64,000 bases of DNA from a virus: positions 52,754 to 116,753 of IMG/VR virus record IMGVR_UViG_3300030202_003282; one strand, written 5' to 3'. A program made the translations under genes and the position numbers. A model generated the notes under the pieces. It saw only the letters and a list, made by a program, of their open reading frames with translations, did no database searches and was not told where the DNA came from. Below are positions 2,883 through 47,866 of this stretch, piece after piece; the first letter of the stretch is position 1, and every line of letters starts with the position of its first letter.

Positions 2883-5800
2883 ATGGCTAAATGTATAAAT
2901 AGAAGTGCTCCAGAATATGCTCCTTTATTAAAGAAGTATAAGTCTGTAATTACAGTAGATAGTATTATAAATAAATGGCAAGATTTTAATTTTGGTACAG
3001 ATTTATTTCCTACAGTAGCACAAGCGGAAGAATATCTTAATAATAAAAAAGCAGTATATTCATTAAAACAAAGAGAATTTGATGAAGCGTTAGTTGCTAA
3101 TTTAAGAAAATTAGGTTTAGTGCAAAGAAGAAATGTAAATGGTCAATTAACTATTTATGTGCAGAATACGCCTAAAGAAGGAGCCCCTTATATATTTAGA
3201 GCAGAAAAAGATCAGCTGTTAAATAATGAGCAATCTAAAAAAGTTGCAGATGAAAATTTTAATAAAGTTTTAAAATATCTGCAAGTTCACGGAATGCCTT
3301 TAGATTATTTTATTCCTACGTATACAAAAAGAACTATAAGATTAGATGTTAATCCTTCTGCAGTTAAACCAAAAGATATAATAGAAATAGCTAAAAAAGC
3401 TACTAGAAAAATTTCTCCTAATACTACTGCAATATTAGAGCATTTAGGACAAATGTTTCCTCAATTAAATATTAATGTAGTTAATAAAGAACAAGCACGT
3501 AGATATTGGGAATCATTACCACAAGCAATAAGAGGGTTAAATAAAAATAAATTTGACCAGGTAAACTCATTTTACTATAGAGGAAATGTAATATTAATTG
3601 AAGGAAGAATTAATAGTGAAACAGCAATAGAAGAAGTATTACACCCATTTATGGATGCAGTATATGCACAAAATAAAAGTTTATTTGAAGGTTTATTGTC
3701 AGAAGCTAAAGAAAACTTTCCTGAATTAGTTGTTAAAATTGAAAATGCATATAAAACTAGTGATGATGTATTTTTTGATCAAACTCAAATAGATAAAGAA
3801 ATAGTAACACAAGCTTTATCTAGACATTTTAATAGAGAATATGAAAATAATCCAACAGAAAGTTGGACAACAATGATAAAAGATTTGTTTGATTTTTTTA
3901 TGACAATTTTAAAAGATCTACATAAATATATAAGTGGTAAAAATTTAAAAGGAGTTAGAGTTGAATCTATAGTTGGCTTTGCAAAATTATCTGATATTGC
4001 TAAACTTTTAAATACTTCAAATATTTCATTTGATTTATCATTAGCAAATAAAGATAAAATAAATAAAGTTCAGTATTCTTTATCTCCAGGTAAAATGGCT
4101 ATTATAAATGCTGCAATAGCACAAGGAAATCCGCTTCAACAAAAAATTGTAGCACAATTATTTCATACACCTGGAAATGTACCTATGGATAAAGATAGTG
4201 CTTTTACAGATGAAGATGGTAATTATGATTTTTTAACTGCTACAGGAGTACAGGATGGTGAAACTATAATAGTATTAAATGCAAAAGATCATGTATACTA
4301 TAATGTAAAGACGGGAGAAGCATATACATCAGCTACTACTGTTATAAAAGGTACAATGCCTGAATCAGTGAGAAAAGATAAAAGAATAGCTCTTGAATTA
4401 GGAAATGATTTTGATGCAATTACAGACGGTATAGCTGCAGGATTAACTTTAGATCAAATTAAAGATAATATGACAATATTAGATCCTGAAGTAATTAGAG
4501 ATGCATATAATCAAATATTTGCAACAGTTAATAATATTGAAATGGAACCTACAATGGTGGGTAAACCAGAAAGAAATATTGTTTTACCACAAGTAATTTT
4601 ATATGATGAAAAGACAAAAACTGCTGGTACAGTAGATTTAATGGTTATTACACCAACAGGACAAATAAGAATTATAGATTTAAAAACTAGTAAAAATTCA
4701 ATTAACAAAATTGATAGATTTTCTAAAAGTCCTGCATATAGTACAAATAGTTTTCCTTTAGGAGAAGATTCTAAATTATTATATGAAACTGAAGATGGTC
4801 AATATTTATTAGATTCAAAAGGTAATAAAATTAGAAAAACAGAATTATCTGGAAAAAGAAAAGGTTTGCCTTTACGTATAGAAATGACTACAAAGCAACA
4901 ACATGATATGCAAGTTAATCTTTATAGAAGAATGGCTGAAAACATGGGGTTAGAAATTGAGCATGGTAGGTTAGGTACAATGACTTATCATATTCATGTT
5001 CCTTGGACTACAAAAGATTTTAATAAAGATGGTAAATATACAGGAACATTTAGATTAGAAGGTTTCCAAGTTCAACAAGATCAACAAAATGAACTTTATA
5101 TTGATCAATTAGTACCTGAAGATAGAAATAGTTGGAGTGCTGAAAAAATGCAAAGAACGGTTGAGCAAGATGAAAATTCTCCTTTAAAGGATAATTATTT
5201 AAATGATAACGAAGCATTGCCAGAAGATATTACTGATGCAAATGGGCTTACAGAATACAATACTATTTTTACTGCATTGCAAGATTTTAAACAAGGATTG
5301 TTAGATAGAAAAACTGCATTATTACAATTAAGATCAGCAATTACATTAGACAAAACAAGAGCTGAAGCTGTTGAAATGATTGATGATAAAATAGCTGCTA
5401 TTGAAGTTGCAACTTTAATAGGTGATGGTAAAAAAATGGCAGCTGAATATACTAGACTTATGACATCTTCTATTAAAGAAATGGATAAGTTTATAGAATA
5501 CATGAATAATCCTAAAAATTATAATTCTCAAAAGTATATTAATTATGCTTTAAATTTTGACAAGTTTATTGCAACATATTCTGGATTAAGAAATATAAAA
5601 AAATCTGGAGATTTGAATAATACTCAGATGAAATTATTATTGACTTTAGAAGATAAACTTAAAGAAATTGGTGGTTATCAAAAATCAGGTGGAGAAGTAG
5701 TAGAAGGACTTGTAGATAAAGCTATTTCAAATTATGTTAGAACATATGTTAAAGAAAATAGTAACAGAGAAGATTTAGATGATGCTACATTAGATAGTAT

Positions 5801-8768
5801 AATGAAGTTAGGTGAAGACATAGGCATGTTTGAATTTGGAACTTATGATATATCTACATCAAGAGATACCCTTCTTGCATTGATGGATAAGGTTTTTAAA
5901 GCTAAACAACAAGAAGTATTAGATAAAATTTCTAATAGAGAATATAGAATAAGACAATCTGCTTCAACTTTAGCTAAATTATCTTCAGGAAATGATCAAA
6001 ATGAATTCTATAATTATATGTTAGAATTTGATGAAGAAGGTGTTCCAACAGGAATGGTTGTTCAGAAAATTGGAAAGCAATATTGGAATAAAAAGAAAAC
6101 TTTTTATGATAAACTATCTGATGCTAGTGGTGTGCCATTACAATACAGACATATTGATAGTATAGAAGAAGCTAAAAAAACAAAACAAGGAAGAGAAGAT
6201 ATTGCATATAACATAGCATTACATAAAAGAAAAATGGAGTTTGCTGTTTTTATGAGAGCTGAATATACGCAAGATGGTACTTTAAGAGATGGTAGATATC
6301 ACAGGTATAATGATGAATTTATTAAAGCACGTTTAATACATGAAACTTATGTACAAGTAGGAGATAATCATGGTCATTGGGAACAAAAGAAAGGTATGAC
6401 TGATGCTGCATATCAAAAATATTTAGTTAAGTATTATGATCAAAAAGATAATGTAACTAAATCTGAATACATTGGTGGTGAATTTACCGGTAAAGTATAT
6501 GAAGTACCAACTAGATTTTATGTTAAAAAAGATTATGTAATTATAAATGAAACTGCAAAAAATGATAAGGGTGGATTAGAGTCTATGGTTAGTGAAAAAT
6601 GGGATAAAATAATGAATCCTACTGATGCACTAGGAGAAGCTCAAAAAGATTTTTATAACACTTACATGGAGATTTACAATGACATGTTGGAAAAATTACC
6701 TATGACAACTAGAGATAAGATGTTAGGTAAAATGCCTTTAATTAAAAATACATTTTTTGAAAGCTTAAAAGATAAACCAAATGCAGTGGCTAACTTATGG
6801 ACTAAAATGACCAGAGGTACTAAAGATTTCTTTACAAGTACTGCTCATAGTAAAAGAGTTGTTTTAGATGAACAAGGTAATCTTACAGATCAATTGCCAA
6901 TATTTTATGTTGGTTCTCCAAGAACAGAAGAACAATTGAAAAAAATTCTTGATGATATAGAAGCTTTAGAAATAAGATATAAAGAAGGAGGACCTAATGC
7001 AATAAGTTTTGAAGAGTATAAAAAACAGTTACAAGTTCTTAAAGGAGAAGAAGCTAAAATAAGACAAGTTCCTACAAGATCAGAAATAAGTAAAGATATG
7101 GCTGATAGTTTATTAAGATTTACTGCAATGGCTGAAAATTATGAAGTCATGGGACAAGCAGAAGATACTATAAATGCCATGTTAAAAATAATAGAAAAAA
7201 GAACTTATACAACATCTGAGAATGTTGTTACAGCATATATAAAAGGTAAAAAAGAACAAGTAGGAGAAGTTAAAGGTTCAGATTCAAATGTTTATAAAAG
7301 AGCTAAAAAATGGATGAACATGGTTTATTATAACAATGATTCAATGAGCAAATCTGTGGCAGATAAAATGGTATCTAAAGTAATAAGATATTCTTCTTTA
7401 TCTTATGTTGCTTGGAATCCATTTGGTAATATAAACAACTATGTAATAGCAAGATTAAATAATGGTATAGAAGTAGCAGGACAAAGATTTTTTTCTGCTA
7501 AATCATATGCAAGAGCAACGGCAGAATTTAATAAAAGAGTTATGCCAGACTTAGTAAGAAAAACAGCTTTTGCTGGTGGACAATTTGCATCAGGTCAATA
7601 TGATCAATATGAGGCACAATCAAAATATGAAGCTTTTGTTGAATTATTTAGAATGATGGATAATACTGCTGATATCCGTGAATCTGGTTATAATGGAAAA
7701 AAAGGTTTGTTTTCTAAATTTATGGATTTAGGTTATTTACTACAAGATGGTGCAGAATATAATGTTCAAACTAAAGTAGGAATGGCCATGATTATGGATG
7801 TTCAAGTTAGAAAAAGTAAAGAGGGCAATGGAGGAGAAACATTGAGTTTATGGGATGCTATGGAATTTAACTCAGTTACTCATAAATTAACTTTAAAAGA
7901 AGGTTTTGATGAAGTAGCAGAAAGAAATAGTGCTGATCCTAAAAGTGGAGAAAGAAATTGGACAAAATATGATGATCAGTGGAGATATCAATATAGAAAT
8001 AAAATACGTGAAGTAAACAAACAAATACACGGTAACTATGCTCATGAAGATAGAATGGTAATTCAATCACATTGGGGTGGTGAATTAATAGCTCAATTTC
8101 ACAAGTGGGTTGTCCCTGCTATTAAGGCAAGATATAGAAAAGAATATTTTGATGAAAATGTAGGTTACTTAGAAGGTAGATATAGAAGTTTATTTCAATT
8201 AACAAAATGGGCTTGGAAAAATAAAGCCAATATAAAAAATCTTAAAGAACAATTTAAACAAGATTTTGGTGAAGGAAATAGAGCTAAAATGAAAGTTTTA
8301 AATCTTTATAGAGCAGCTGGTGAAACAGCTATAATGTTTACTACACTTGCAGTAGCAAGTTTATTAAAAGGTTTATTTGAAGATGATGATGATGACTCAC
8401 CAGGAATGAGAAGGCTTAAAAATGCTATGGTGTATCAAGCAGATAGAGCATATAAAGAATTAATACAATTTGCTTGGTTTACACCAGATGGAGTAAAACA
8501 AATATGGCAGATGGTAGGATCTCCTATAGCTTCTACAAGAACATTAGGAGAATTAACAGAAGCTTTTGTTGCAACTGCAGATTATGCATATTATGGATTA
8601 ACTCAACCACCAGAAGAATTTTATAAAAATTCAGATATTTATTATCAAAGAAGGCCACGTAAAGGTCAGCTTAAATTAGCAAAGGAATGGAAAGATGTAG
8701 TTCCAATAATATATGGTATTCAAAGATGGGCTGATTTTGAAAATCAAAAAGATTTTTATATTAAATAA
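2883..8768 (+). CDS. Giant virion cargo protein with a degenerate zincin-like motif and a PD-(D/E)XK nuclease domain
   Basis: 1961 aa; 'IEEVLHPF...KEIVTQAL' zincin-like; 'YTSATTVI...AGTVDLMV...IIDLKTS...QVNLYRRM' PD-(D/E)XK; helical C-terminus. Confidence 0.65.
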   Translation: MAKCINRSAPEYAPLLKKYKSVITVDSIINKWQDFNFGTDLFPTVAQAEEYLNNKKAVYSLKQREFDEALVANLRKLGLVQRRNVNGQLTIYVQNTPKEGAPYIFRAEKDQLLNNEQSKKVADENFNKVLKYLQVHGMPLDYFIPTYTKRTIRLDVNPSAVKPKDIIEIAKKATRKISPNTTAILEHLGQMFPQLNINVVNKEQARRYWESLPQAIRGLNKNKFDQVNSFYYRGNVILIEGRINSETAIEEVLHPFMDAVYAQNKSLFEGLLSEAKENFPELVVKIENAYKTSDDVFFDQTQIDKEIVTQALSRHFNREYENNPTESWTTMIKDLFDFFMTILKDLHKYISGKNLKGVRVESIVGFAKLSDIAKLLNTSNISFDLSLANKDKINKVQYSLSPGKMAIINAAIAQGNPLQQKIVAQLFHTPGNVPMDKDSAFTDEDGNYDFLTATGVQDGETIIVLNAKDHVYYNVKTGEAYTSATTVIKGTMPESVRKDKRIALELGNDFDAITDGIAAGLTLDQIKDNMTILDPEVIRDAYNQIFATVNNIEMEPTMVGKPERNIVLPQVILYDEKTKTAGTVDLMVITPTGQIRIIDLKTSKNSINKIDRFSKSPAYSTNSFPLGEDSKLLYETEDGQYLLDSKGNKIRKTELSGKRKGLPLRIEMTTKQQHDMQVNLYRRMAENMGLEIEHGRLGTMTYHIHVPWTTKDFNKDGKYTGTFRLEGFQVQQDQQNELYIDQLVPEDRNSWSAEKMQRTVEQDENSPLKDNYLNDNEALPEDITDANGLTEYNTIFTALQDFKQGLLDRKTALLQLRSAITLDKTRAEAVEMIDDKIAAIEVATLIGDGKKMAAEYTRLMTSSIKEMDKFIEYMNNPKNYNSQKYINYALNFDKFIATYSGLRNIKKSGDLNNTQMKLLLTLEDKLKEIGGYQKSGGEVVEGLVDKAISNYVRTYVKENSNREDLDDATLDSIMKLGEDIGMFEFGTYDISTSRDTLLALMDKVFKAKQQEVLDKISNREYRIRQSASTLAKLSSGNDQNEFYNYMLEFDEEGVPTGMVVQKIGKQYWNKKKTFYDKLSDASGVPLQYRHIDSIEEAKKTKQGREDIAYNIALHKRKMEFAVFMRAEYTQDGTLRDGRYHRYNDEFIKARLIHETYVQVGDNHGHWEQKKGMTDAAYQKYLVKYYDQKDNVTKSEYIGGEFTGKVYEVPTRFYVKKDYVIINETAKNDKGGLESMVSEKWDKIMNPTDALGEAQKDFYNTYMEIYNDMLEKLPMTTRDKMLGKMPLIKNTFFESLKDKPNAVANLWTKMTRGTKDFFTSTAHSKRVVLDEQGNLTDQLPIFYVGSPRTEEQLKKILDDIEALEIRYKEGGPNAISFEEYKKQLQVLKGEEAKIRQVPTRSEISKDMADSLLRFTAMAENYEVMGQAEDTINAMLKIIEKRTYTTSENVVTAYIKGKKEQVGEVKGSDSNVYKRAKKWMNMVYYNNDSMSKSVADKMVSKVIRYSSLSYVAWNPFGNINNYVIARLNNGIEVAGQRFFSAKSYARATAEFNKRVMPDLVRKTAFAGGQFASGQYDQYEAQSKYEAFVELFRMMDNTADIRESGYNGKKGLFSKFMDLGYLLQDGAEYNVQTKVGMAMIMDVQVRKSKEGNGGETLSLWDAMEFNSVTHKLTLKEGFDEVAERNSADPKSGERNWTKYDDQWRYQYRNKIREVNKQIHGNYAHEDRMVIQSHWGGELIAQFHKWVVPAIKARYRKEYFDENVGYLEGRYRSLFQLTKWAWKNKANIKNLKEQFKQDFGEGNRAKMKVLNLYRAAGETAIMFTTLAVASLLKGLFEDDDDDSPGMRRLKNAMVYQADRAYKELIQFAWFTPDGVKQIWQMVGSPIASTRTLGELTEAFVATADYAYYGLTQPPEEFYKNSDIYYQRRPRKGQLKLAKEWKDVVPIIYGIQRWADFENQKDFYIK

Positions 8769-11430: not shown

Positions 11431-11811
11431 ATGTTAAATAAATTAGGTCATATATTAAAATATTATGACTCAGAACCTACTGAGATTATGCAAGGTTTAA
11501 TATGGTTTTTATTATTCCCTATTATTTACATATTAGAAGTAGGTTTAAACTTATGGATTCTTATCCCAAGTATTTTAATTGGTTATGGCACATTGAGAGC
11601 AGTGTGCTTTTTCTCTTTACGTAAAAGAAAAACTTTTGCTTATGCATGTTTTATATTATCCTTAGTAGTCTGTGCGTTATTTTTATGTGATGGCTGTCTT
11701 TTAAAAGATGCAACACATCTGGGTTGGATATTTGTAGCTTTTAGTGCTTTAACAAGTTTAAAAAGAGTTACAGCAAGATATTATGCTAAAGAATCATGTG
11801 TAAAAAAATAA
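11431..11811 (+). CDS. Multi-pass membrane protein (holin-like candidate)
   Basis: About four hydrophobic helices; first gene of the + strand block. Confidence 0.55.
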   Translation: MLNKLGHILKYYDSEPTEIMQGLIWFLLFPIIYILEVGLNLWILIPSILIGYGTLRAVCFFSLRKRKTFAYACFILSLVVCALFLCDGCLLKDATHLGWIFVAFSALTSLKRVTARYYAKESCVKK

Positions 11812-11815
11812 TATA

Positions 11816-12130
11816 ATGGAAAATTTAGATAGTTTAACTACAGTACTTGTATCCCTGATGACAGTTTTATTTTCAGCGGGTGCTTGGAAATTTTATGAAA
11901 AAAGAATGGCACTAAAACATGAAGAGACTTCAGATGAAAAATCAGAAAAGAATATGTACAGAGATGATTTACGAGAAAGAGTAAGAAAACTAGAGTCTTT
12001 ATTAGAAGAAAGTTCTAAAGAAAAAGATGAAATGAGAGAGCAAATTCTTTCTTTAACAAGTGAGGTATCAGCCCTTCAAGTTAAAGTTGATCACCTTGAA
12101 AAAGAGAATCAACGTTTGAAAAATATATAA
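11816..12130 (+). CDS. N-terminal TM plus coiled-coil protein (lysis accessory candidate)
   Basis: Hydrophobic N-terminus followed by a heptad-rich coil. Confidence 0.55.
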   Translation: MENLDSLTTVLVSLMTVLFSAGAWKFYEKRMALKHEETSDEKSEKNMYRDDLRERVRKLESLLEESSKEKDEMREQILSLTSEVSALQVKVDHLEKENQRLKNI

Positions 12131-12164
12131 ATTTTTTGTATATTGATAATATAAACTAATAATC

Positions 12165-12437
12165 ATGATTAAAACAATTTTAAACGGTATATGGACATTC
12201 AGTCTTAAAAAAGGTTGGAACTGGGTTTGGGATCAAACTACTATAGACGAAAAAGCTATAGAGGTAGCAAAAGAAACTAAACGAAGAGTAAAAGCAGTTG
12301 GTGAAGAACTCAAAGATGTGGGTGAAGCAATTGCTGAAGTTGCCGATCAAGCTGGTGATGTAGCAAAAGCAGCAGCTGGTAAAAAACGTCCAGGAAGAAA
12401 AAAAGGTTCAACTAATAAAAAGAAAAAAGATGCCTAA
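12165..12437 (+). CDS. Small protein with basic C-terminal tail
   Basis: Amphipathic helix and 'GKKRPGRKKG' tail. Confidence 0.6.
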   Translation: MIKTILNGIWTFSLKKGWNWVWDQTTIDEKAIEVAKETKRRVKAVGEELKDVGEAIAEVADQAGDVAKAAAGKKRPGRKKGSTNKKKKDA

Positions 12438-12588
12438 TTTAAACGGAAAAAAATACTCTTATGATGCAGCTGGAATGGCTCAGTATAAGGAGGATCTTAA
12501 AGCTATGAAAATGGCAAGATCAGGAAAAGAAGTAAAAATGCCTAAGTATAGAAAAGGTGGTTGTACACCAATGAAACTTAAAAAATAA
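12430..12588 (+). CDS. Small basic protein, 52 aa (missing from ORF track)
   Basis: Manual translation MPNLNGKKYSYDAAGMAQYKEDLKAMKMARSGKEVKMPKYRKGGCTPMKLKK; start overlaps the end of the upstream ORF. Confidence 0.6.
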   Translation: MPNLNGKKYSYDAAGMAQYKEDLKAMKMARSGKEVKMPKYRKGGCTPMKLKK

Positions 12589-12592
12589 CATT

Positions 12593-12739
12593 ATGGGCTG
12601 CGGCTGTAGTAATAAAAGAAGAACTGTTAAATCAACAAAAAAAATAAAAAATACTACTTTATTACAAAGTGGTAGAGTAACTTCTGTGTATGATCAAAAA
12701 AATGCACAAGGAAGAAAATCACATAAATACGGTACATAA
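12593..12739 (+). CDS. Small basic 'MGCGC' protein, 48 aa (missing from ORF track)
   Basis: [19 protein letters not shown]...HKYGT; stop overlaps the next start (TAATG). Confidence 0.55.
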
Positions 12740-15213
12740 TGGGCACAAAAAAAGTAGCAGGTAAAGCATTAGGCGTTGTAAGATTTAAAGATCTGCATGC
12801 TCAAGTAAAAAATATTGATACTAGTATTCAAGGCAATTTAGCTCTTGGTACTCCAGGTCCACAGGGTCCACAAGGCCCTACAGGTCCGCAAGGCTCTACC
12901 GGCCCAGCAGGTACAGCATCAATTGTTCCTGGACCTCAAGGGCCAACAGGTTCTGCAGGTGCTACAGGAGCAATTGGCCCTCAAGGTCCTCAAGGAGATC
13001 CTGGTACAAATGGTACAAATGGATCTACAGGTGCAACTGGTTCTCAAGGCCCAGCAGGTCCAGCAGGTCCAATAGGTCCAATAGGCCCGGCAGGAACTAA
13101 TGGTACAGATGGTACAGATGGAGTAACAGGTCCTATAGGCCCAACTGGATTGCAAGGTCCAACTGGTACAACGGGTGCAACTGGTGCAATAGGTCCACAA
13201 GGATCAACGGGTCCAACCGGCCCACAAGGAGCACAAGGTGGTGTTGGCCCTGGAATTACATTTAAAGGTAGTGTAGCTGATCAAGCAGCATTGAATGCTT
13301 TAAGTAGCCCATCTGTTGGAGATGCTTATATAAGACAAGATGATGATTCTTTTCATGTTTATGATGGATCAGCATTTGTTAACGGTGGTTCAATACAAGG
13401 TGATGAAGGACCAATTGGTTCAACTGGTCCAACTGGACCTCAAGGTGCTACGGGAGCAGCAGGAAGTAATGGTTCTGATGGATCAACCGGTCCACAAGGT
13501 CCTTCTGGAGCAGCCGGTGCCATAGGACCACAGGGGCCAGCCGGACTTCAAGGACCTACAGGTTCTACTGGATCTAATGGTGCTACAGGTGCTACAGGTG
13601 CAGCATGTGAAATAGAAACTCAAAACTATAATGCAAGTACTGGTATTTTAACTTTAGAATTTTCTGATGCAACTGAAGTTATAACAGGAGATTTAAGAGG
13701 AGCAACAGGAAATGACGGTGTTTTAGGTGGGATGTTTGAATTAGACTATGAATATTATGTAAGTAGTGGAAATGGTAATACAGGTGGAGGTGGACCTCCT
13801 GGCACTCCTCCAGGACCTCAAGCATCAAGTGGTGCTACAAAGTTTAGAACTGCAAATGCAAATGGAGACGCTTTTTCAAATATTACACAGATCTTGTTAA
13901 ATGGGGCATTTGCTCATTTAGATTTATTAAATCTTATAAAAAGAAGTTTTAATGGTATAAATCAGTTTCATACAGATTGTGAGATTTTATTAAAAATGAC
14001 AAAGAAGGATGATCCTTTAACATATAAATTATTTAAAGTTGAAGGTATTTATCATGTATTTACTTTGGGTTTTACCGTATCAGAATTAGAATCTGAAATA
14101 AATTCAAATGATAGTGATCCAGCTAATTGGACAAATGATACTTTTGTATTTACATTCCATGCTATACCAACTCCTACTAAAGTAATTGCAAGAGTATTAG
14201 ATAGTGCTGCTACAATGACTTTACCTTCAGATACATTAGGTCAACAACTAGCATCGGAAGTATTAGCAAGTCATGCATGGATATTAAGAAAAGGAAGTAC
14301 ATCAGGGACTATAATTGCTTCTAATGTTAATCCTGATGATGGATCTCCTTATGGATCTGTACTTTTTAATGATGATGATTGGGAACAATCAACGTCTTTT
14401 ACTTTAACAGCTGCTGATTTTGCAAGTGGTTCACCAACTTTATATTTAACTACTGATAATCCAGGAATTGATGCAAATGAGGCATGGGTTTGTATAAGTA
14501 AAGGTGCAGCATTAAATGATGGTAATACTACTATTAATTCATTATCTGGTTATAGTTCTACTGCAGGAGCTGACGGTTCTGTAGCATGGGCACAAGGTCA
14601 TGGTAATCTTCCATTAGGATCTGATAGTGTTGGAGCTGGTAAAGGAGCTATAACAAATGTAGCTATAAATATTCCTGTAGCTAATGCAGGATGGGGTCCT
14701 GGAACATATTATGTAAACTGTTATGATGAATATGAAGATGGTTGGGGTTCTACTGGATTAGGAATTACACAATCAGCTCAATTTCAACCAGGTACTACAC
14801 CTGATTTTGAAATATTAAACTTAAATTCTGATGGTACAAATAGAACACTAGGTACAGCATTTAATGCTTTAACTACAACATATAGAATATATTATAGATT
14901 TCAATTAGAAAATACTGAATCATCAGCAGTTACTGTAGCGTTTCAACCAGTTGATGGTACAACAGGTATTACAGCAGTAACAGGTACTGAAGGTATTAAT
15001 CATAGAATTGTATCACTTCCAGCATCAAGTACAACAATATTAGAAGGTTATTTAGATGTAGAAGGATTAACACTAGGTAATGGAGCAGCACCAGCTGATT
15101 CAAGAGTTAATATGCAAGCTAAGTGTACAACTTCTGAAAAAACAGTTAAATTAACTGCCGGATTTCCACATGAGTTATGGTGGGAACCATTACAAGTAGT
15201 ATTAAATCCTTAA
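12739..15213 (+). CDS. Collagen-like (Gly-X-Y) fibre/structural protein
   Basis: Two long GPQ/GPT/GAT triplet runs interrupted by a 'FKGSVA...VGDAY...VYDG' spacer, followed by a globular C-terminal region. Confidence 0.85.
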
Positions 15214-15221
15214 TTTTTATC

Positions 15222-15422
15222 ATGGCAAGTAAAAAAAAATGGATTAAAGGAGCTATAAAAAATCCTGGCTCATTAAATGCGGCAGCAAAACGTGCTGGTA
15301 AAAGTAAATCAGAGTTTTGTAAAACTGCAAAAGGTAAAAATAAAAAACGTTGTACATTATGGAAAACTTTAAATAGAGTTAGACCATCTAAAAAAGCAGC
15401 GTATGGTTTTGAAATTCAATAA
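15222..15422 (+). CDS. Small basic phage protein (KKWI..AIK.PG.L type)
   Basis: Likely start at ATG 15222 (MASKKKWIKGAIKNPGSL), not at 15177 as in the ORF track. Confidence 0.6.
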   Translation: MASKKKWIKGAIKNPGSLNAAAKRAGKSKSEFCKTAKGKNKKRCTLWKTLNRVRPSKKAAYGFEIQ

Positions 15423-15433
15423 AAAAAGAAATT

Positions 15434-15838
15434 ATGGCAGTCCCAGCTTTTGTAACTAAAATATTTGGTGGCTTATTTGGTAAAGCAGATAAGATCATAG
15501 ATGAGATTGTAACTTCTAAAGAGGAAAAAATGACTCTTAAGAATGCATTACAACAAATGCTTATTGACAGTGAGGCAGAGCTTCAAAAAAATGTAACAGA
15601 AAGATGGAAAGCTGATATGTCTTCTGATTCTTGGTTAAGTAAAAATGTTAGACCTATGGTTTTAATATTTTTAGTTCTTTCTACAGTAATAATGATTTTT
15701 ATTGATGCTGGTTGGATTGAATTTGATGTTGAGCAAAAATGGACAAGCTTATTAGAATTAGTCCTTATTACAGTTATTGGTGCCTATTTTGGTGGCAGAT
15801 CTGTTGAAAAAGTAAAAAATACTAATAGAAAAAAATAA
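15434..15838 (+). CDS. Holin (3TM, GTA-holin-like family)
   Basis: 'ERWKADMSSDSWLSKNVRP...YFGGRSVEK' family signature. Confidence 0.85.
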   Translation: MAVPAFVTKIFGGLFGKADKIIDEIVTSKEEKMTLKNALQQMLIDSEAELQKNVTERWKADMSSDSWLSKNVRPMVLIFLVLSTVIMIFIDAGWIEFDVEQKWTSLLELVLITVIGAYFGGRSVEKVKNTNRKK

Positions 15839-36134: not shown

Positions 36135-36605
36135 ATGTCAGAAAATAAAACCTCAGAAGCAAATGCTCCTAAAAGAGAAAAAAGAAAAATAATTGATAGA
36201 ACTAAAGTAATAACAGGACTTACATTAAATGCGTCTATTGTTCCAGTATTTCAAAATATTTTAATGACTCTTATTGCTCAAATGAAAAACCCAGAAGATA
36301 TTTCTGGTATTTATAAAAAAATTAATGAAATTGAAAAACATATTCAAGAAGAAACAAAAATTCCTATGGAACTTGTTTTAAATCAATTTGAGCAAATGAT
36401 TTATACCTGCACTTATTTGGTTCAATATTGCCAAGTAGAAGCAGAAAAACAGGGGTGTATGGTTGAAGTAGAATCAAATCCTCTTGATCCTGAACAGACC
36501 AAGAAGATGTTTGATTTGATTCTTAATGATAAAAATAAAACTGATAATGAACAATCAGAAATTATGAAAGATTTAATAAAATCTTTAGATGTTAAAAAAG
36601 TCTAA
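36135..36605 (+). CDS. Hypothetical protein; lone plus-strand gene in the minus block
   Basis: 156-aa ORF with its own promoter-like element. Confidence 0.65.
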   Translation: MSENKTSEANAPKREKRKIIDRTKVITGLTLNASIVPVFQNILMTLIAQMKNPEDISGIYKKINEIEKHIQEETKIPMELVLNQFEQMIYTCTYLVQYCQVEAEKQGCMVEVESNPLDPEQTKKMFDLILNDKNKTDNEQSEIMKDLIKSLDVKKV

Positions 36606-44887: not shown

Positions 44888-45234
44888 GATTTAAATTTTA
44901 GGGTTATAGTAAAATATACAAATGGTAATAATAGAATATAACTAGGTATACGATGACCTTCTTTTCCAAAGCCAAAAGCTATTCCTTTAAAACTATTAGT
45001 TTCAAATTTAATTCCAGGCAATTCTGGTAATATTCTTACATGACTTAGTTGAACTAACATAATAATTGCTACAGATATAGTAGCTATATTCATTGCAGAT
45101 ACAATGGTTATAATTAACCAATCCCATGATATGTTATTACTTAATCCTAATAATACATCAGTTATTATTACTATAACTGGTAATAATACAGTGTAAATTA
45201 ATTTAAAAATTCTCTGAGTTGTTTTCTTTTTCAT
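44884..45234 (-). CDS. Membrane protein
   Basis: Two to three TM helices. Confidence 0.6.
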   Translation of the reverse strand: MKKKTTQRIFKLIYTVLLPVIVIITDVLLGLSNNISWDWLIITIVSAMNIATISVAIIMLVQLSHVRILPELPGIKFETNSFKGIAFGFGKEGHRIPSYILLLPFVYFTITLKFKS

Positions 45235-45353
45235 CTTTTTTTATGTTTGGTTTTACGTGAATATTTCTTTTTATTTTTTTGAATTGAAGGTTTCATTGCA
45301 TTATATATTTCCTGCATAGTAACCACAATTACTTTTAATGGTTTTTTATTCAT
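45231..45353 (-). CDS. 40-aa basic peptide with an ArfA-like tail (missing from ORF track)
   Basis: MNKKPLKVIVVTMQEIYNAMKPSIQKNKKKYSRKTKHKKR; ATGA overlap with the next gene. Confidence 0.55.
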   Translation of the reverse strand: MNKKPLKVIVVTMQEIYNAMKPSIQKNKKKYSRKTKHKKR

Positions 45354-45358
45354 GACAA

Positions 45359-45502
45359 TTATTTAAATGGACATACAGCTGGACATGCTTTTGTTTGATA
45401 ACAAGATTTACTTGTAGAACATGATGTCATAACTATACATGTGAGTATTATATAAGCTATTACTGTAAAATAACAAGCATTCATAAACTTTTCTTTTTTC
45501 AT
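45359..45502 (-). CDS. Small Cys-rich lipoprotein-like peptide, 47 aa (missing from ORF track)
   Basis: Hydrophobic stretch, 'MTSC' lipobox, then 'CYQTKACPAVCPFK'. Confidence 0.55.
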   Translation of the reverse strand: MKKEKFMNACYFTVIAYIILTCIVMTSCSTSKSCYQTKACPAVCPFK

Positions 45503-45540
45503 GGTTGAAGTTTTAAGTGATTAATAAAAATTAAAGTGAG

Positions 45541-45612
45541 TGGCAGTAATAGGATTTGAACCTATCTGTACCAGATCCATCATAAGAGCTATCATTCTTA
45601 TGTGGTACTGCC
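45541..45612 (-). ncRNA. tRNA-like element (acceptor stem and T-arm, non-canonical D/anticodon region)
   Basis: GGCAGTA/TACTGCC-A acceptor stem; T-arm ATAGG-TTCAAAT-CCTAT; 72 nt. Confidence 0.6.
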
Positions 45613-45619
45613 ATATAAA

Positions 45620-46380
45620 TAAAAGGCTGAGAATGTGACCTTTTTGTTCTAAGTTTATACTTGCCATTTCTGACTCAATTCACACGATGCATTACTGCAT
45701 GTACTTAGAATACACACGGATTAAGATGTCCGCCATCACTGCTATTGTAGATATAACTTCACTTTCAAACTAACTTCCCTGGAAGGATTAGGAGAGAACC
45801 ACCTCTCTTAGATAAATTTTACTAGATTCATTTACATTAGGCCTTGCGAGCTTTATCTGCACCTGTATATTACAACAGGATAAGTGTATTGTTGGGGTGT
45901 TTCCCACATACAATAGCCTTTACGTTAATTATGCTTTTAGTTATTGAACATTTTGGCGTTCTTTAAAAGGATTCAGGTTATTAGTAGAAGACACGTAAAG
46001 TTTATATAATCATGCCAGCTTTTGACCGGTTTAGACTATAACTTCTACTTACTTTCATGGGCCTCCCCATTAATCATTGTTTTAAATCTATTGTCACAGT
46101 ATTTCTACTAGCAACTAGATAAAATTCTAATAACAGCTTTTGATCCGGTGAGATCATACTACCATTACCTATCATAACGCTTATTGATGTTTCCATCTCA
46201 ACAACCAGCCTGTCTGATTGTCTATGCTACTGTATCACCTCAAGAGGATTTGATACACCATAACATAGATGTTACGATACCTTTCCGTGAAATGCATTGC
46301 TGCATCAGAGAGTTTATTCCATATTCAACTCTCTTTTATCCCATTGCTGGTTTATCCTTATGGCCACGAAGGCTGACCAA
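45620..46380 (-). ncRNA. Large, highly structured non-coding RNA candidate
   Basis: No credible ORF; many nested and long-range stems; GNRA tetraloops on the minus strand. Confidence 0.65.
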
Positions 46381-46488
46381 TACTTTTTAATAACAATTTC
46401 TAGGCACAAATAATGCTATACTAAATGTCATAACGACTTATATCTTACTTGGCTATAGGCTCTTTTATTTAACTGCCTAGAATTATTA

Positions 46489-46683
46489 TTATATTCCTTG
46501 TTCAAAATCATTAAGTTCATTGAACATATGATCCATTGCTGCTTCTTCAAAGCAAGTTTCTATATTACCCATCTTGGGTTTTGTTTCTATATCATCTTTG
46601 CATAGTTGTGTTAATGCTCTTTCAGGTGTGACATAACCTTCACTTACATCTTTCAGTAAGTTGTATGTTTGTTTTACAGTCAT
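46489..46683 (-). CDS. Hypothetical protein
   Basis: Likely start MTVKQ at 46683. Confidence 0.5.
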   Translation of the reverse strand: MTVKQTYNLLKDVSEGYVTPERALTQLCKDDIETKPKMGNIETCFEEAAMDHMFNELNDFEQGI

Positions 46684-46693
46684 ATAATTGTTT

Positions 46694-46972
46694 TTAAATA
46701 TTAGTAAGTACGTATCTTTTACGCTTAGACACGCAATCAAATATGCATAGTATTTTTTTTACTATAACATTAGTTGCTGTTTTATTAGGTTCTGTGATTA
46801 ATAATATGATGTCTTCATTATTACTTTCATCTACATATCCAATCTTATGTTTATCTAACATATCTTTTACGATATCATAAACTGTTTCTGCATAGTTATA
46901 AGCAACGAAGTGATCATTATTTCCTCTTGTCATTAAACTGTGAGGATAAATTTTTAATTCAAATGTTTCCAT
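46694..46972 (-). CDS. Hypothetical protein
   Basis: Likely start METFELK at 46972, after an A/C-rich leader. Confidence 0.55.
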   Translation of the reverse strand: METFELKIYPHSLMTRGNNDHFVAYNYAETVYDIVKDMLDKHKIGYVDESNNEDIILLITEPNKTATNVIVKKILCIFDCVSKRKRYVLTNI

Positions 46973-47010
46973 TGTTTTAGTTTTTGGTTGAGTTAATAAA
47001 ATAATAAATC

Positions 47011-47480
47011 TAGCCAGGTTGTATAGGTTCTGCACTACAATTTAAGTGACTCACTGCTGAACTCATAACGTGTCGGTCCCACCACTATAGCAACCTGACT
47101 AATTAATAATGACAAGGCAAAATACGTTAAAATCCTTGTCTGTGCAATTTTATCCATTACCCTCAACATATCTCTATGTATCCTGGTCTGCAATTTGTGA
47201 GTCCGTTTATTAAACCAGTTATTATCTCACATTTGCTTATTAAACACTCTTAGGTGATAATAAGAAGCCGGCTCTGTAATATTTTGCAGGTCACATGGAG
47301 CTCAAGAATTAAGAGGAGCTACCTCAACTTGAATACAATCAGAATCCTGTCTTTATAATTTCTGGTGGACCCCATGTGATTAATATCTTAAGCAGTTTTG
47401 ATTCATGCTTAGGAACCCACTCAACCACAAGATTCCGGATACCAATATGCTTATCCTGTATATAGAGAACATACATAGGA
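47011..47480. ncRNA. Second structured non-coding region (at least two elements)
   Basis: Multiple inverted repeats; no ORF. Confidence 0.5.
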
Positions 47481-47668
47481 AGAACAAAAGGTATTAAGTC
47501 TGTTTGTTTTAATTATAGTATCAGTGATAGCTATATTAATTATTACTGTGGTTGTAGTAAATATGGTGGTGATTAGTGGAAGAATGTGGTGTATGTGACC
47601 TCACTCTTAAAGATACACGCACAAATAAATAAAAATGTGCGTGCAATTAAAGAAGTTGGTGGTAAATA

Positions 47669-47866
47669 CTATGGTTTACCCTGACGTAACACTATTTTGT
47701 TAAGTCTTCTTGTCTCTTTAGTGTTGAGAAGTCTTTGAGACACTAGGTTTTGACCTATATAGTAGTTATAGTCAGTGTCCATGTCTTGTGCTATTTCTTT
47801 TACATATGCACTAATATCTCTTAATGCTATGTATTGTGCTGATCTGTATGTTTTCTTTTGTGCCAT
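47669..47866 (-). CDS. Hypothetical early protein
   Basis: Likely start MAQKKTY at 47866. Confidence 0.55.
   Translation of the reverse strand: MAQKKTYRSAQYIALRDISAYVKEIAQDMDTDYNYYIGQNLVSQRLLNTKETRRLNKIVLRQGKP

Follow-up and report, generated by a model that had tools for sequence, protein, structure and literature searches.

GOLLD RNAs are among the largest non-coding RNAs of bacteria and phages. As described in two reports, phages and prophages carry them, often close to tRNA islands; they combine a conserved 3' domain with a variable 5' domain, and their expression goes up during lysis (PMC12286853; PMC12990946). The same reports describe RNA-only cages of 10, 12 or 14 subunits, the number depending on the helices that are present (PMC12286853; PMC12990946). 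For the Sag and env-38 GOLLDs, assembly into cages is established (Kretsch et al., Nature 2025, PMC12286853; PMC12990946), and variants without some of the helices assemble with other stoichiometries (PMC12990946). The marine env-38 GOLLD, 833 nt in length, is located downstream of a Met-tRNA, and in these accounts the function of GOLLD is not established (PMC12286853; PMC12990946); some family members carry tRNAs in their linker (PMC12990946). ROOL, a further large ornate phage RNA, is also reported to be cage-forming and to occur near tRNA islands (Kretsch et al., bioRxiv version of PMC12286853). Here we analyse a 64,000-nt stretch of viral DNA (hereafter the window), the final 64 kb of the 116,753-bp IMG/VR virus record IMGVR_UViG_3300030202_003282. 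Its minus strand encodes, at 45622-46381, a ~760-nt RNA which is very likely a highly divergent member of the GOLLD family. The RNA lies within a mosaic accessory region, where the replication block of a crAss-like phage begins, and a tRNA-like element follows directly.

The RNA of the window resembles the described GOLLDs in being phage-borne, in its size (~0.76 kb, against ~700-850 nt for the family) and in its division into a 5' region that varies, a linker and a 3' domain that is conserved. Further likenesses are a hairpin with a UCAAAAG loop before the linker, a long-range helix around the middle of the 3' domain, a CGCAAG hairpin and a terminal UCUCA hairpin; in addition, the 5' start is homologous, and the relative of this RNA in the metagenome contig L050 lies directly downstream of a tRNA-Met. 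The agreement with the published description in phage location, tRNA neighbourhood, conserved 3' part and variable 5' part was counted in favour of the GOLLD assignment. The RNA differs from known GOLLDs in its score (50.7 bits, against an Rfam gathering score of 150), in having only a tRNA-like element in place of a canonical flanking tRNA, in an extra small hairpin after the 5' strand of the long-range helix, and in two inner hairpins whose loops are of GNRA type (GUAA, GAAA) and not those of the consensus. In the literature collection searched, no paper contains both "GOLLD" and "crAss" as whole words, and the published GOLLD alignments may already include such RNAs.

The neighbouring tRNA-like element has parallels of its own. 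The mascRNA of MALAT1 is a tRNA-like element that serves 3'-end processing. What the element of the window has in common with mascRNA and the linker tRNAs of some GOLLDs is a tRNA shape next to a long structured non-coding RNA, here directly downstream of it, with an intact minihelix of acceptor stem and T arm and a degenerate anticodon region. Unlike the linker tRNAs, it lies outside the GOLLD RNA; a single long arm replaces its D and anticodon arms, and its processing is proposed here from its anatomy and in part from the example of mascRNA.

Identification of the GOLLD-like RNA

The first-pass annotation, made from the letters of the 64-kb stretch and a list of its reading frames, had described an "RNA island" near the start of the leftward transcription unit. 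All coordinates below are window positions unless another locus is named. The main element is organized as follows:

45622..46381, minus strand: probable GOLLD-family RNA of ~760 nt (Rfam match, models R1 and R3, homology, covariation)
~46381-45976, minus strand: 5' region
~45975-45916, minus strand: variable linker
~45915-45622, minus strand: 3' domain

The assignment came by way of a neighbouring gene, a 92-aa open reading frame (ORF), which has relatives in five IMG/VR loci. In the closest of these, L002 (protein 87% identical), the slot just downstream of the 92-aa homologue holds a canonical GOLLD (171.1 bits, E 1e-46), which has no DNA similarity to the window. This GOLLD, together with a visible likeness of the 3' ends, led to a separate scan of positions 45610-46110, in which 501 bases were searched on both strands against 4227 Rfam families with laxer filters. 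The full GOLLD model (RF02032, 1-416) matched 45624-46049(-) with 50.7 bits and an E-value of 2e-12.

At the gathering score, Rfam reports no family in the region, and the GOLLD of the window was detected neither in this mode nor in a wider E-value mode nor by a genome search with RF02032. Since it was found in the isolated stretch, the earlier misses are ascribed to filter losses. The same genome search also failed on the RNA of L025, which lies between two tRNAs and reaches 99.4 bits (E 1.1e-26) in lax mode. Negatives from the routine Rfam and genome-search routes are therefore weak, because known sub-threshold GOLLDs were missed by them. This applies to ROOL (RF03087), for which no match was found in the genome at E ≤ 10 by the very route that missed the sub-threshold GOLLDs; ROOL is absent also from the lax Rfam scans of 45610-46110 and 47000-47680. 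Across the related loci, GOLLD scores are graded from L002 through L025 to the window.

Two further models were derived from a set of GOLLD-like RNAs termed group M. A pattern of three loop motifs, taken from the window and the GOLLD consensus, retrieved 15 IMG/VR stretches, 14 of which (11 distinct) form this coherent group; they are L022-L034 and L036, on phage contigs of 40-162 kb. The remaining stretch, L035, was a chance match at 39% identity and was left out of the alignments. R1, a model of the 3'-terminal 148 nt of 11 group M RNAs, includes no window-type sequence. Its top match in the 64 kb, searched on both strands with filters off, is 45624-45769(-) at 22.1 bits (rough E 0.029), the next match reaching 14.3 bits, and the canonical GOLLD of L002 scores 22.4 bits. 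The R1 alignment recovers, as pairs, the closing helix, 5 of the 6 pairs of the first hairpin and the terminal hairpin. R3, which models the first ~125 nt of the group M 5' domain, matches 46273-46381(-) at 32.6 bits (E 7.4e-5). It does so exactly at the 5' start in all six window-type sequences, the other five scoring 26.2-34.8 bits; L002 scores 25.9 bits and the best other match 10.8 bits. An alternative start of the 5' domain near 46215, suggested by a non-significant nhmmer match (E 4.7), was dropped as R3 showed otherwise. For the remainder of the 5' region, no similarity to other GOLLDs was detectable. Together, the Rfam model, R1 and R3 place both GOLLD ends in the right order on one RNA, and the signature loops UCAAAAG, UGUAAUAU, CGCAAG and UCUCA are common to the window and GOLLD.

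Structure and conservation

A paired-motif scan of IMG/VR found only two close relatives. From metagenomes, 58 stretches were obtained: L083 is identical to the window, L070, L052 and L075 are ~96% identical, and L047, L050 and L060 are 68-72% identical. The homology of the last three spans window positions 46387-45615, and the 5' boundary was placed near 46381 on this basis. The extent given in the first-pass annotation, a single RNA at 45620-46380, was thus correct within a few bases.

For nine window-type sequences, RNAalifold predicted 175 pairs, 64 of which have changes on both sides. Paired cells amount to 98.4%, compared with 36-48% when partners are slid, and the 64 pairs with two-sided changes compare with 4-10 in the slid controls; none of 500 shuffles reached the observed values. 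At no fewer than 10 pairs, every one of the nine sequences has G-U, and as these would be A-C mismatches on the plus strand, the minus strand is identified as the RNA strand. Folding z-scores (20 shuffles each) are -4.2 on the minus and -3.1 on the plus strand for 45520-46500, and -2.9 and -1.2, respectively, for 47000-47670. The initial impression of structured RNAs side by side on the leftward strand near the start of the block is borne out.

Two hairpins of the GOLLD model are of particular use for orientation:

45976..46049, minus strand: long hairpin just 5' of the linker; UCAAAAG loop at 46025-46019, GOLLD model positions 1-62
45622..45650, minus strand: terminal GOLLD hairpin with loop ...UUCUCA... 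and then a U-rich tail; matches the final hairpin in the GOLLD model

The stem segments of the long hairpin (helices 15-17) comprise 8, 7 and 5 pairs, with 2, 1 and 3 of them changed on both sides. In the long-range helix (helix 19, marked [[ ]] in Rfam), GCUAUUGUA pairs with UACAAUAGC; all 9 pairs are formed in 100% of the nine sequences and 4 of the 9 are changed on both sides. In the Rfam alignment, the placement of this helix is imperfect. The terminal hairpin shows one compensatory change, A-U to G-C, between the window and L008/L010. With its U-rich tail, it is possibly an intrinsic terminator as well; a consensus scan did not list the hairpin at 45622-45650. RNAalifold also pairs UGGUC (~46378-46374), at the start of the RNA, with GGUCA (~45641-45637), on the 5' side of the terminal hairpin. 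The 5 pairs are formed in 9/9 sequences with one-sided changes only, and this helix would compete with the terminal hairpin of Rfam.

In the close relatives L008 and L010, the GOLLD RNA is 96% identical and the flanks are 74-91% identical; the RNA is better conserved than the neighbouring genes.

Two repeated motifs had been singled out in the first-pass annotation, and both exceed chance: CAGCTTTTGA(N)CCGGT at 46016 and 46134 (2 matches, 0.00 expected; 0/100 shuffles reach 2) and TATAACTTC...CTTTCA at 45752 and 46037 (2 matches against 0.00 expected). The related CAGTTTTGATT is present near 47393. The proposal that the first motif is a module recurring across elements holds in so far as both copies are there, but the copy at 46134 is not conserved in relatives. 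At 46030-46016, ACCGGUCAAAAGCUGG makes up the inner hairpin, with its loop, within the long GOLLD hairpin, and the repeated motif is the conserved UCAAAAG loop of the GOLLD hairpin before the variable linker. The second copy (46149-46134) reads AUAGGAAG in L047, L050 and L060, where the site is part of a different covarying hairpin, UGAUCU/GGAUCA (helix 12), and is not a second copy of the module. As for the other motif, the copy at 46037-46057 overlaps the 5' strand of the outer stem of the long hairpin (45976-46049), and the copy at 45752-45767 sits just ahead of the 3' strand of the long-range helix.

Several points weigh against the GOLLD assignment. With 50.7 bits, the RNA stays short of the gathering score of 150 bits; the central 3' domain (model ~215-280) aligns poorly, with low posterior probabilities and deletions, and several GOLLD consensus pairs are non-standard in the window. 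The E-value of R1 is only 0.029, and a rough one, and 17 of the 27 pairs of this model are aligned as pairs, with two inner hairpins treated as insertions. The nine sequences in which covariation was assessed are also those from which the structure was derived, and as six of them are near-identical, they amount in effect to three divergent relatives. At the places matching model ~215-280, two hairpins with different loops are found; the two inner hairpins of the 3'-terminal module are present in the window with other lengths, and helices 26-28 of this module covary in the window-type clade.

A score so far under the cut-off, the poorly aligned central 3' domain and the absence of primary-sequence similarity to the L002 GOLLD would also be expected of an ornate phage RNA of a new class without relation to GOLLD, the sub-threshold match then being due to convergence or chance. 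We consider this very improbable, since three independent models (Rfam, R1 and R3) agree on order and spacing within one ~760-nt RNA, the four signature loops are held in common, and intermediates at 99 bits exist. Judged from these comparisons, the main element is a strongly divergent new variant of the known GOLLD family and not a new system. The initial proposal of an RNA-based system for host takeover or anti-defence, possibly with an action on translation, gained no support from the analyses made here.

The region is mosaic, with sharp breakpoints of homology to relatives at ~47383, 46684, 45615 and 45356, one of which coincides with the end of the contig L007. Such a pattern might be expected if the structures acted at the DNA level only, as a replication origin, a terminal repeat or a recombination hotspot, and palindromes of this type had been named in the first-pass annotation as the outcome that would speak against an RNA. 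However, mosaicism accounts for the movement of a cassette and not for its identity. The compensatory changes maintain RNA pairs, the invariant G-U pairs, at least 10 in number, are impossible on the other strand, and the stretch matches an RNA family model; a role confined to DNA is thus scarcely credible, and the GOLLD-family RNA remains our reading of 45622-46381.

The tRNA-like element

Beyond the 3' end of the GOLLD RNA at 45622, at a distance of 9 nt, lies a second structured RNA:

45540..45612, minus strand: tRNA-like RNA of 73 nt; folding z-score -3.65; conserved in L047

Its acceptor stem is a perfect 7 bp (GGCAGUA/UACUGCC), followed by a discriminator A, and its T arm is canonical, with a UUCRANY-type loop (GGUUCAAAUCC; AUAGG-UUCAAAU-CCUAU). 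The D arm and the 7-nt anticodon loop are missing; in their place, there is a 10-bp arm with an 8-nt loop, plus a mini-hairpin of 3 bp. The Rfam tRNA model (RF00005) scores 18.1 bits in the window and 20.0 bits in L047, both below the cut-off of 29 bits, and ARAGORN finds 0 tRNAs in the window and none in L047 either.

The copy in L047 (4136-4209), located ~180 nt downstream of the GOLLD of that phage, is 88% identical to that of the window, compared with 72% for the GOLLD and ~70% for the genes. All differences but one fall in the long arm, where AUAAGA/UCUUAU is replaced by AUAGAG/CUCUAU, corresponding to 3 compensatory pairs, and where the loop sequence differs as well; the one remaining difference changes a G-C of the mini-hairpin to G-U. 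The "tRNA mimic" of the first-pass annotation is therefore real and is kept with compensatory changes in L047. In the latter, a CCA is encoded after the discriminator A (4206-4212), where the window has CUC.

A model of the element, R2, matches only the window, the identical L083 and L047 among 69 sources (532 kb); the next match, at 26.6 bits, probably represents a normal tRNA. A 22-nt sequence comprising the T arm and the 3' acceptor strand has 0 exact matches in 185,579 species genomes and a near-identical 22-mer 0 in IMG/VR, so that no source tRNA was found.

Phages often carry tRNA fragments at attachment sites. The element could accordingly be a decaying tRNA pseudogene or part of a tRNA-derived attachment site, as its sub-threshold tRNA score, the lack of D and anticodon arms and its absence from the closest relatives L008 and L010 might suggest. 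This is nevertheless improbable: in L047 the element is 88% identical against ~70% for the surrounding genome, the differences are restricted to a single arm, where they are compensatory, the two strands of the acceptor stem are preserved, and neither the species genomes nor IMG/VR contain a source tRNA. Comparison of the two distinct sequences instead indicates selection at the RNA level, as on a functional RNA and not a decaying gene. Points against the overall reading are that the element is known from two distinct phages only, that L008 and L010 are without it, and that no canonical tRNA is found in the window. Given its absence from L008 and L010, the tRNA-like element is dispensable for GOLLD. 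The tRNA-like RNA that accompanies this GOLLD is previously undescribed.

Possible roles and significance

By analogy with the described cages, the RNA of the window probably self-assembles into an RNA-only multimeric cage during infection; more speculatively, its altered central hairpins may give a cage of new stoichiometry. It is a natural variant with changed central hairpins, and the published structures, as presented in the reports cited above, tie such changes to different oligomer numbers.

As other GOLLDs are flanked by or contain tRNAs, the tRNA-like element may stand in for the tRNA neighbour of GOLLD. The minihelix of acceptor stem and T arm, together with the discriminator A, would be recognized by RNase P, RNase Z and the CCA-adding enzyme of the host, and this recognition would trim the 3' end of the GOLLD RNA and release a small tRNA-shaped RNA. 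Based on the anatomy of the element, we put such processing by host enzymes at a little below an even chance. A broader proposal, that in this lineage the genuine flanking tRNAs have been replaced by an anticodon-less tRNA-shaped RNA, selected in two ~70%-identical phages, is speculative and rather unlikely. If it were true, what GOLLD needs from its neighbours would be a tRNA-shaped handle and not decoding tRNAs. The handle would be either the processing site that releases the cage-forming RNA or a cargo or partner of the cage, and the association of GOLLD with tRNAs could be tested with a minimal two-part construct.

Irrespective of these roles, the family extends well past the reach of the Rfam cut-off and of the speed filters. 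GOLLD is probably under-counted in phage genomes, because routine scans overlooked both the window (50.7 bits) and L025 (99 bits). Marine crAss-like phages are among its carriers, and there it sits in a mosaic slot which is occupied by a canonical GOLLD in one relative and is empty in others. A conserved anticodon-less tRNA-like neighbour could help to explain the placement of GOLLD among tRNAs. None of these findings discloses the biological function of GOLLD.

Group M and other related loci

The loci collected from IMG/VR (L022-L036) and from metagenome contigs (L037-L094) include many large phage contigs with sub-gathering GOLLD-like RNAs, mostly between two tRNAs. None of the group M RNAs reaches the GOLLD cut-off in the gathering mode of Rfam. 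In their 3'-terminal module, 98.6% of the cells are paired, compared with 23-52% for slid partners, and 18 of 27 pairs are changed on both sides. Group M and the window share the same architecture and signature loops, and both stay below the Rfam cut-off. In contrast, group M RNAs are only 45-52% identical to the 3' domain of the window and are sandwiched between genuine tRNAs, which the window lacks; their 3' hairpin is without the U-rich tail seen in the window, and the central hairpins carry the loops CUGCAA and CGCAAG in group M but GUGGUU and UUCCAG in the window. Among the metagenome loci, L050 has a tRNA-Met directly upstream of its window-type RNA, and L046 has a tRNA inside the linker. 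In contigs of species genomes, the three-motif GOLLD pattern gave 1 match, in a Clostridiaceae metagenome-assembled genome (MAG), which is uninformative on the host.

Other structured RNAs were seen at some of these loci. In L034, a ROOL RNA (261.5 bits, 1017-1606 minus) is located a few hundred bases from the GOLLD-like RNA (226-626), within an array of more than 25 tRNAs. In L029, an abiF RNA (4704-4740; Rfam, 38.3 bits) follows ~100 nt downstream of the GOLLD-like RNA, and in L035 an RT-18 RNA is found at 6788-6894 (Rfam, 68.5 bits).

Genomic setting

The virus record is rated complete by CheckV. Among isolated and reference phages, the best matches of its large terminase are crAss-like phages at ~25% identity, which agrees with the crAss-like origin guessed in the first-pass annotation. 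The genes of the window include a portal protein, a DNA polymerase and a ribonucleotide reductase. Between 9164 and 48323, almost all genes are carried by the minus strand, the plus-strand exceptions being two ORFs near 11431-15838 and one at 36135-36605; from 48533 onward, genes are on the plus strand. The RNA region sits near the start of the leftward block, which is a block of replication genes (DNA polymerase, ribonucleotide reductase).

Fourteen DNA runs labelled marine, seawater or aquatic contain at least 0.52 of the words sampled from 45300-47700, and the source sample may be among them. In six runs labelled as RNA, which come from five studies, 0.22-0.26 of these words are present; these runs were not counted as evidence of expression. 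A search of the region against 50,697 phage records with blastn gave no match. Taken as a whole, the sequence evidence fits a marine crAss-like phage of 117 kb as the host genome of these RNAs.

Within the RNA region, all genes are on the minus strand. The ORF-free parts are ~45521-46490 and 47036-47668, with two small ORFs (92 aa and 64 aa) between them and two tiny ORFs (47 aa and 40 aa) after them.

Small proteins of the region

The small ORFs, in the order of transcription, are:

46694..46972, minus strand: 92-aa ORF, a small orphan family with 11 protein clusters, none with a function
46489..46683, minus strand: 64-aa ORF, no Pfam match
45359..45502, minus strand: 47-aa ORF with a lipobox-like ...VMTSC, nothing above the Pfam cut-off
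45231..45353, minus strand: 40-aa basic protein, homologues in L008 and L047

None of these small proteins matches a known Pfam family above the cut-off. A link between the 92-aa protein and GOLLD was considered and rejected: the two are adjacent only in the window and L002, L003-L006 carry 92-aa homologues without an adjacent GOLLD, and the best R1 match in L003-L007 has 11.8 bits (E 0.88). The 64-aa ORF is whole in L008, with 6 synonymous and 6 non-synonymous codon differences, and has a 78-nt in-frame deletion and an early stop in L010. The 47-aa ORF is a putative lipoprotein, going by its lipobox-like motif only; it shares with the tRNA-like element a 260-nt segment that is missing from L008 and L010.

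The 40-aa basic protein has a homologue of 44 aa in L047 (2347-2481), upstream of the GOLLD of that phage, and is encoded by a real, conserved gene. Its initial label as ArfA-like was not borne out by Pfam, where ArfA gave no match at E ≤ 1, no direct comparison with an ArfA sequence having been made; the only Pfam hit was DUF7230 at 18.2 bits, under the cut-off of 27.

Hairpins upstream of the GOLLD RNA

The remaining structured elements lie upstream of the GOLLD RNA:

46389..46490, minus strand: hairpin element of ~100 nt closed by UUCUAGGCA/UGCCUAGAA; folding z-score -3.74 (46385-46492)
47011..47101, minus strand: hairpin element of ~90 nt closed by AGUCAGGUUG/CAACCUGGCU; folding z-score -2.03 (47008-47104)
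47385..47510, minus strand: conserved non-coding stretch with three hairpins, last loop ...AAUCAAAAC...; folding z-score -1.71 (47383-47510)
47601..47656, minus strand: strong hairpin just after the upstream gene; folding z-score -4.78 (47590-47668)

The hairpin at 46389-46490, which overlaps the 64-aa ORF at its stop codon, ends ~8 nt before the 5' end of the GOLLD RNA. It does not differ between the window, L008 and L010, and L070, L052 and L075 have the same 3' end of the hairpin. L047, L050 and L060 are without it; at this place, L050 has the tRNA-Met and L060 a different hairpin. It is thus a separate element, as the first-pass annotation had proposed, and one that is absent from more distant relatives.

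A segment of ~700 nt (46684-47383), which contains the 92-aa gene and 347 nt of non-coding sequence with the 90-nt hairpin, is missing in L008 and L010. The hairpin itself (47011-47101) has no relative among the loci compared and no Rfam match better than E 6.7. For 47036-47383, no relative was found in 92 other loci (of 94), the window-identical L083 starting only at 47004. By contrast, positions 47500-47390, a stretch of ~115 nt, are nearly invariant in the window, L007, L008 and L010, whereas the preceding ~110 nt vary. The span 47111-47480, initially taken as a single unit, is not supported as one, as only ~47385-47668 is common to the relatives. The count of "five or more separate elements" was too high. 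Just upstream of the conserved stretch is a sigma-70-like site (47539-47512), such sites being as numerous as expected by chance. In the strong hairpin at 47601-47656, the stem GCACGCACA/UGUGCGUGU becomes CCACACACA/UGUGUGUGU in L007 and L008, which amounts to one compensatory pair; this hairpin is probably the terminator of the upstream gene.

A coding role for 47036-47668 was also considered. No ORF reaches 60 aa under translation table 11, and reading TAG as glutamine or using table 4 yields marginal frames of 60-102 aa and a 171-aa frame running into the upstream gene, none of them convincing. The region appears to be a structured leader plus an intergenic stretch. It might alternatively encode one or more further functional small RNAs of the same system, for example at 47385-47510, as the near invariance of ~47390-47500 in four related sequences next to a variable ~110 nt, the better folding of the minus strand and the lack of ORFs would allow. 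We regard this as unlikely, although less so than the alternatives weighed above: Rfam gives no match better than E 3.7 in 47000-47680, the z-score of the conserved stretch is only -1.71, covariation is absent because the sequences are nearly identical, and 47036-47383 is without a relative among the loci compared. Moreover, a terminator, a promoter and a 5' leader would explain the stretch equally well.

Homology among the relatives breaks off at one shared base, immediately 3' of the AAUCAAAAC-loop hairpin (window 47383-47386, L008:7006, L010:716 and the end of L007), and the contig L007 terminates at this ~47383 breakpoint. To judge by the alignments, the breakpoint looks like a recombination junction for accessory cassettes. 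In L047, the ~1 kb that follows the tRNA-like element (4210-5280) has ORFs of at most 56 aa, gives no match to Rfam at E ≤ 1 and may hold further non-coding elements.

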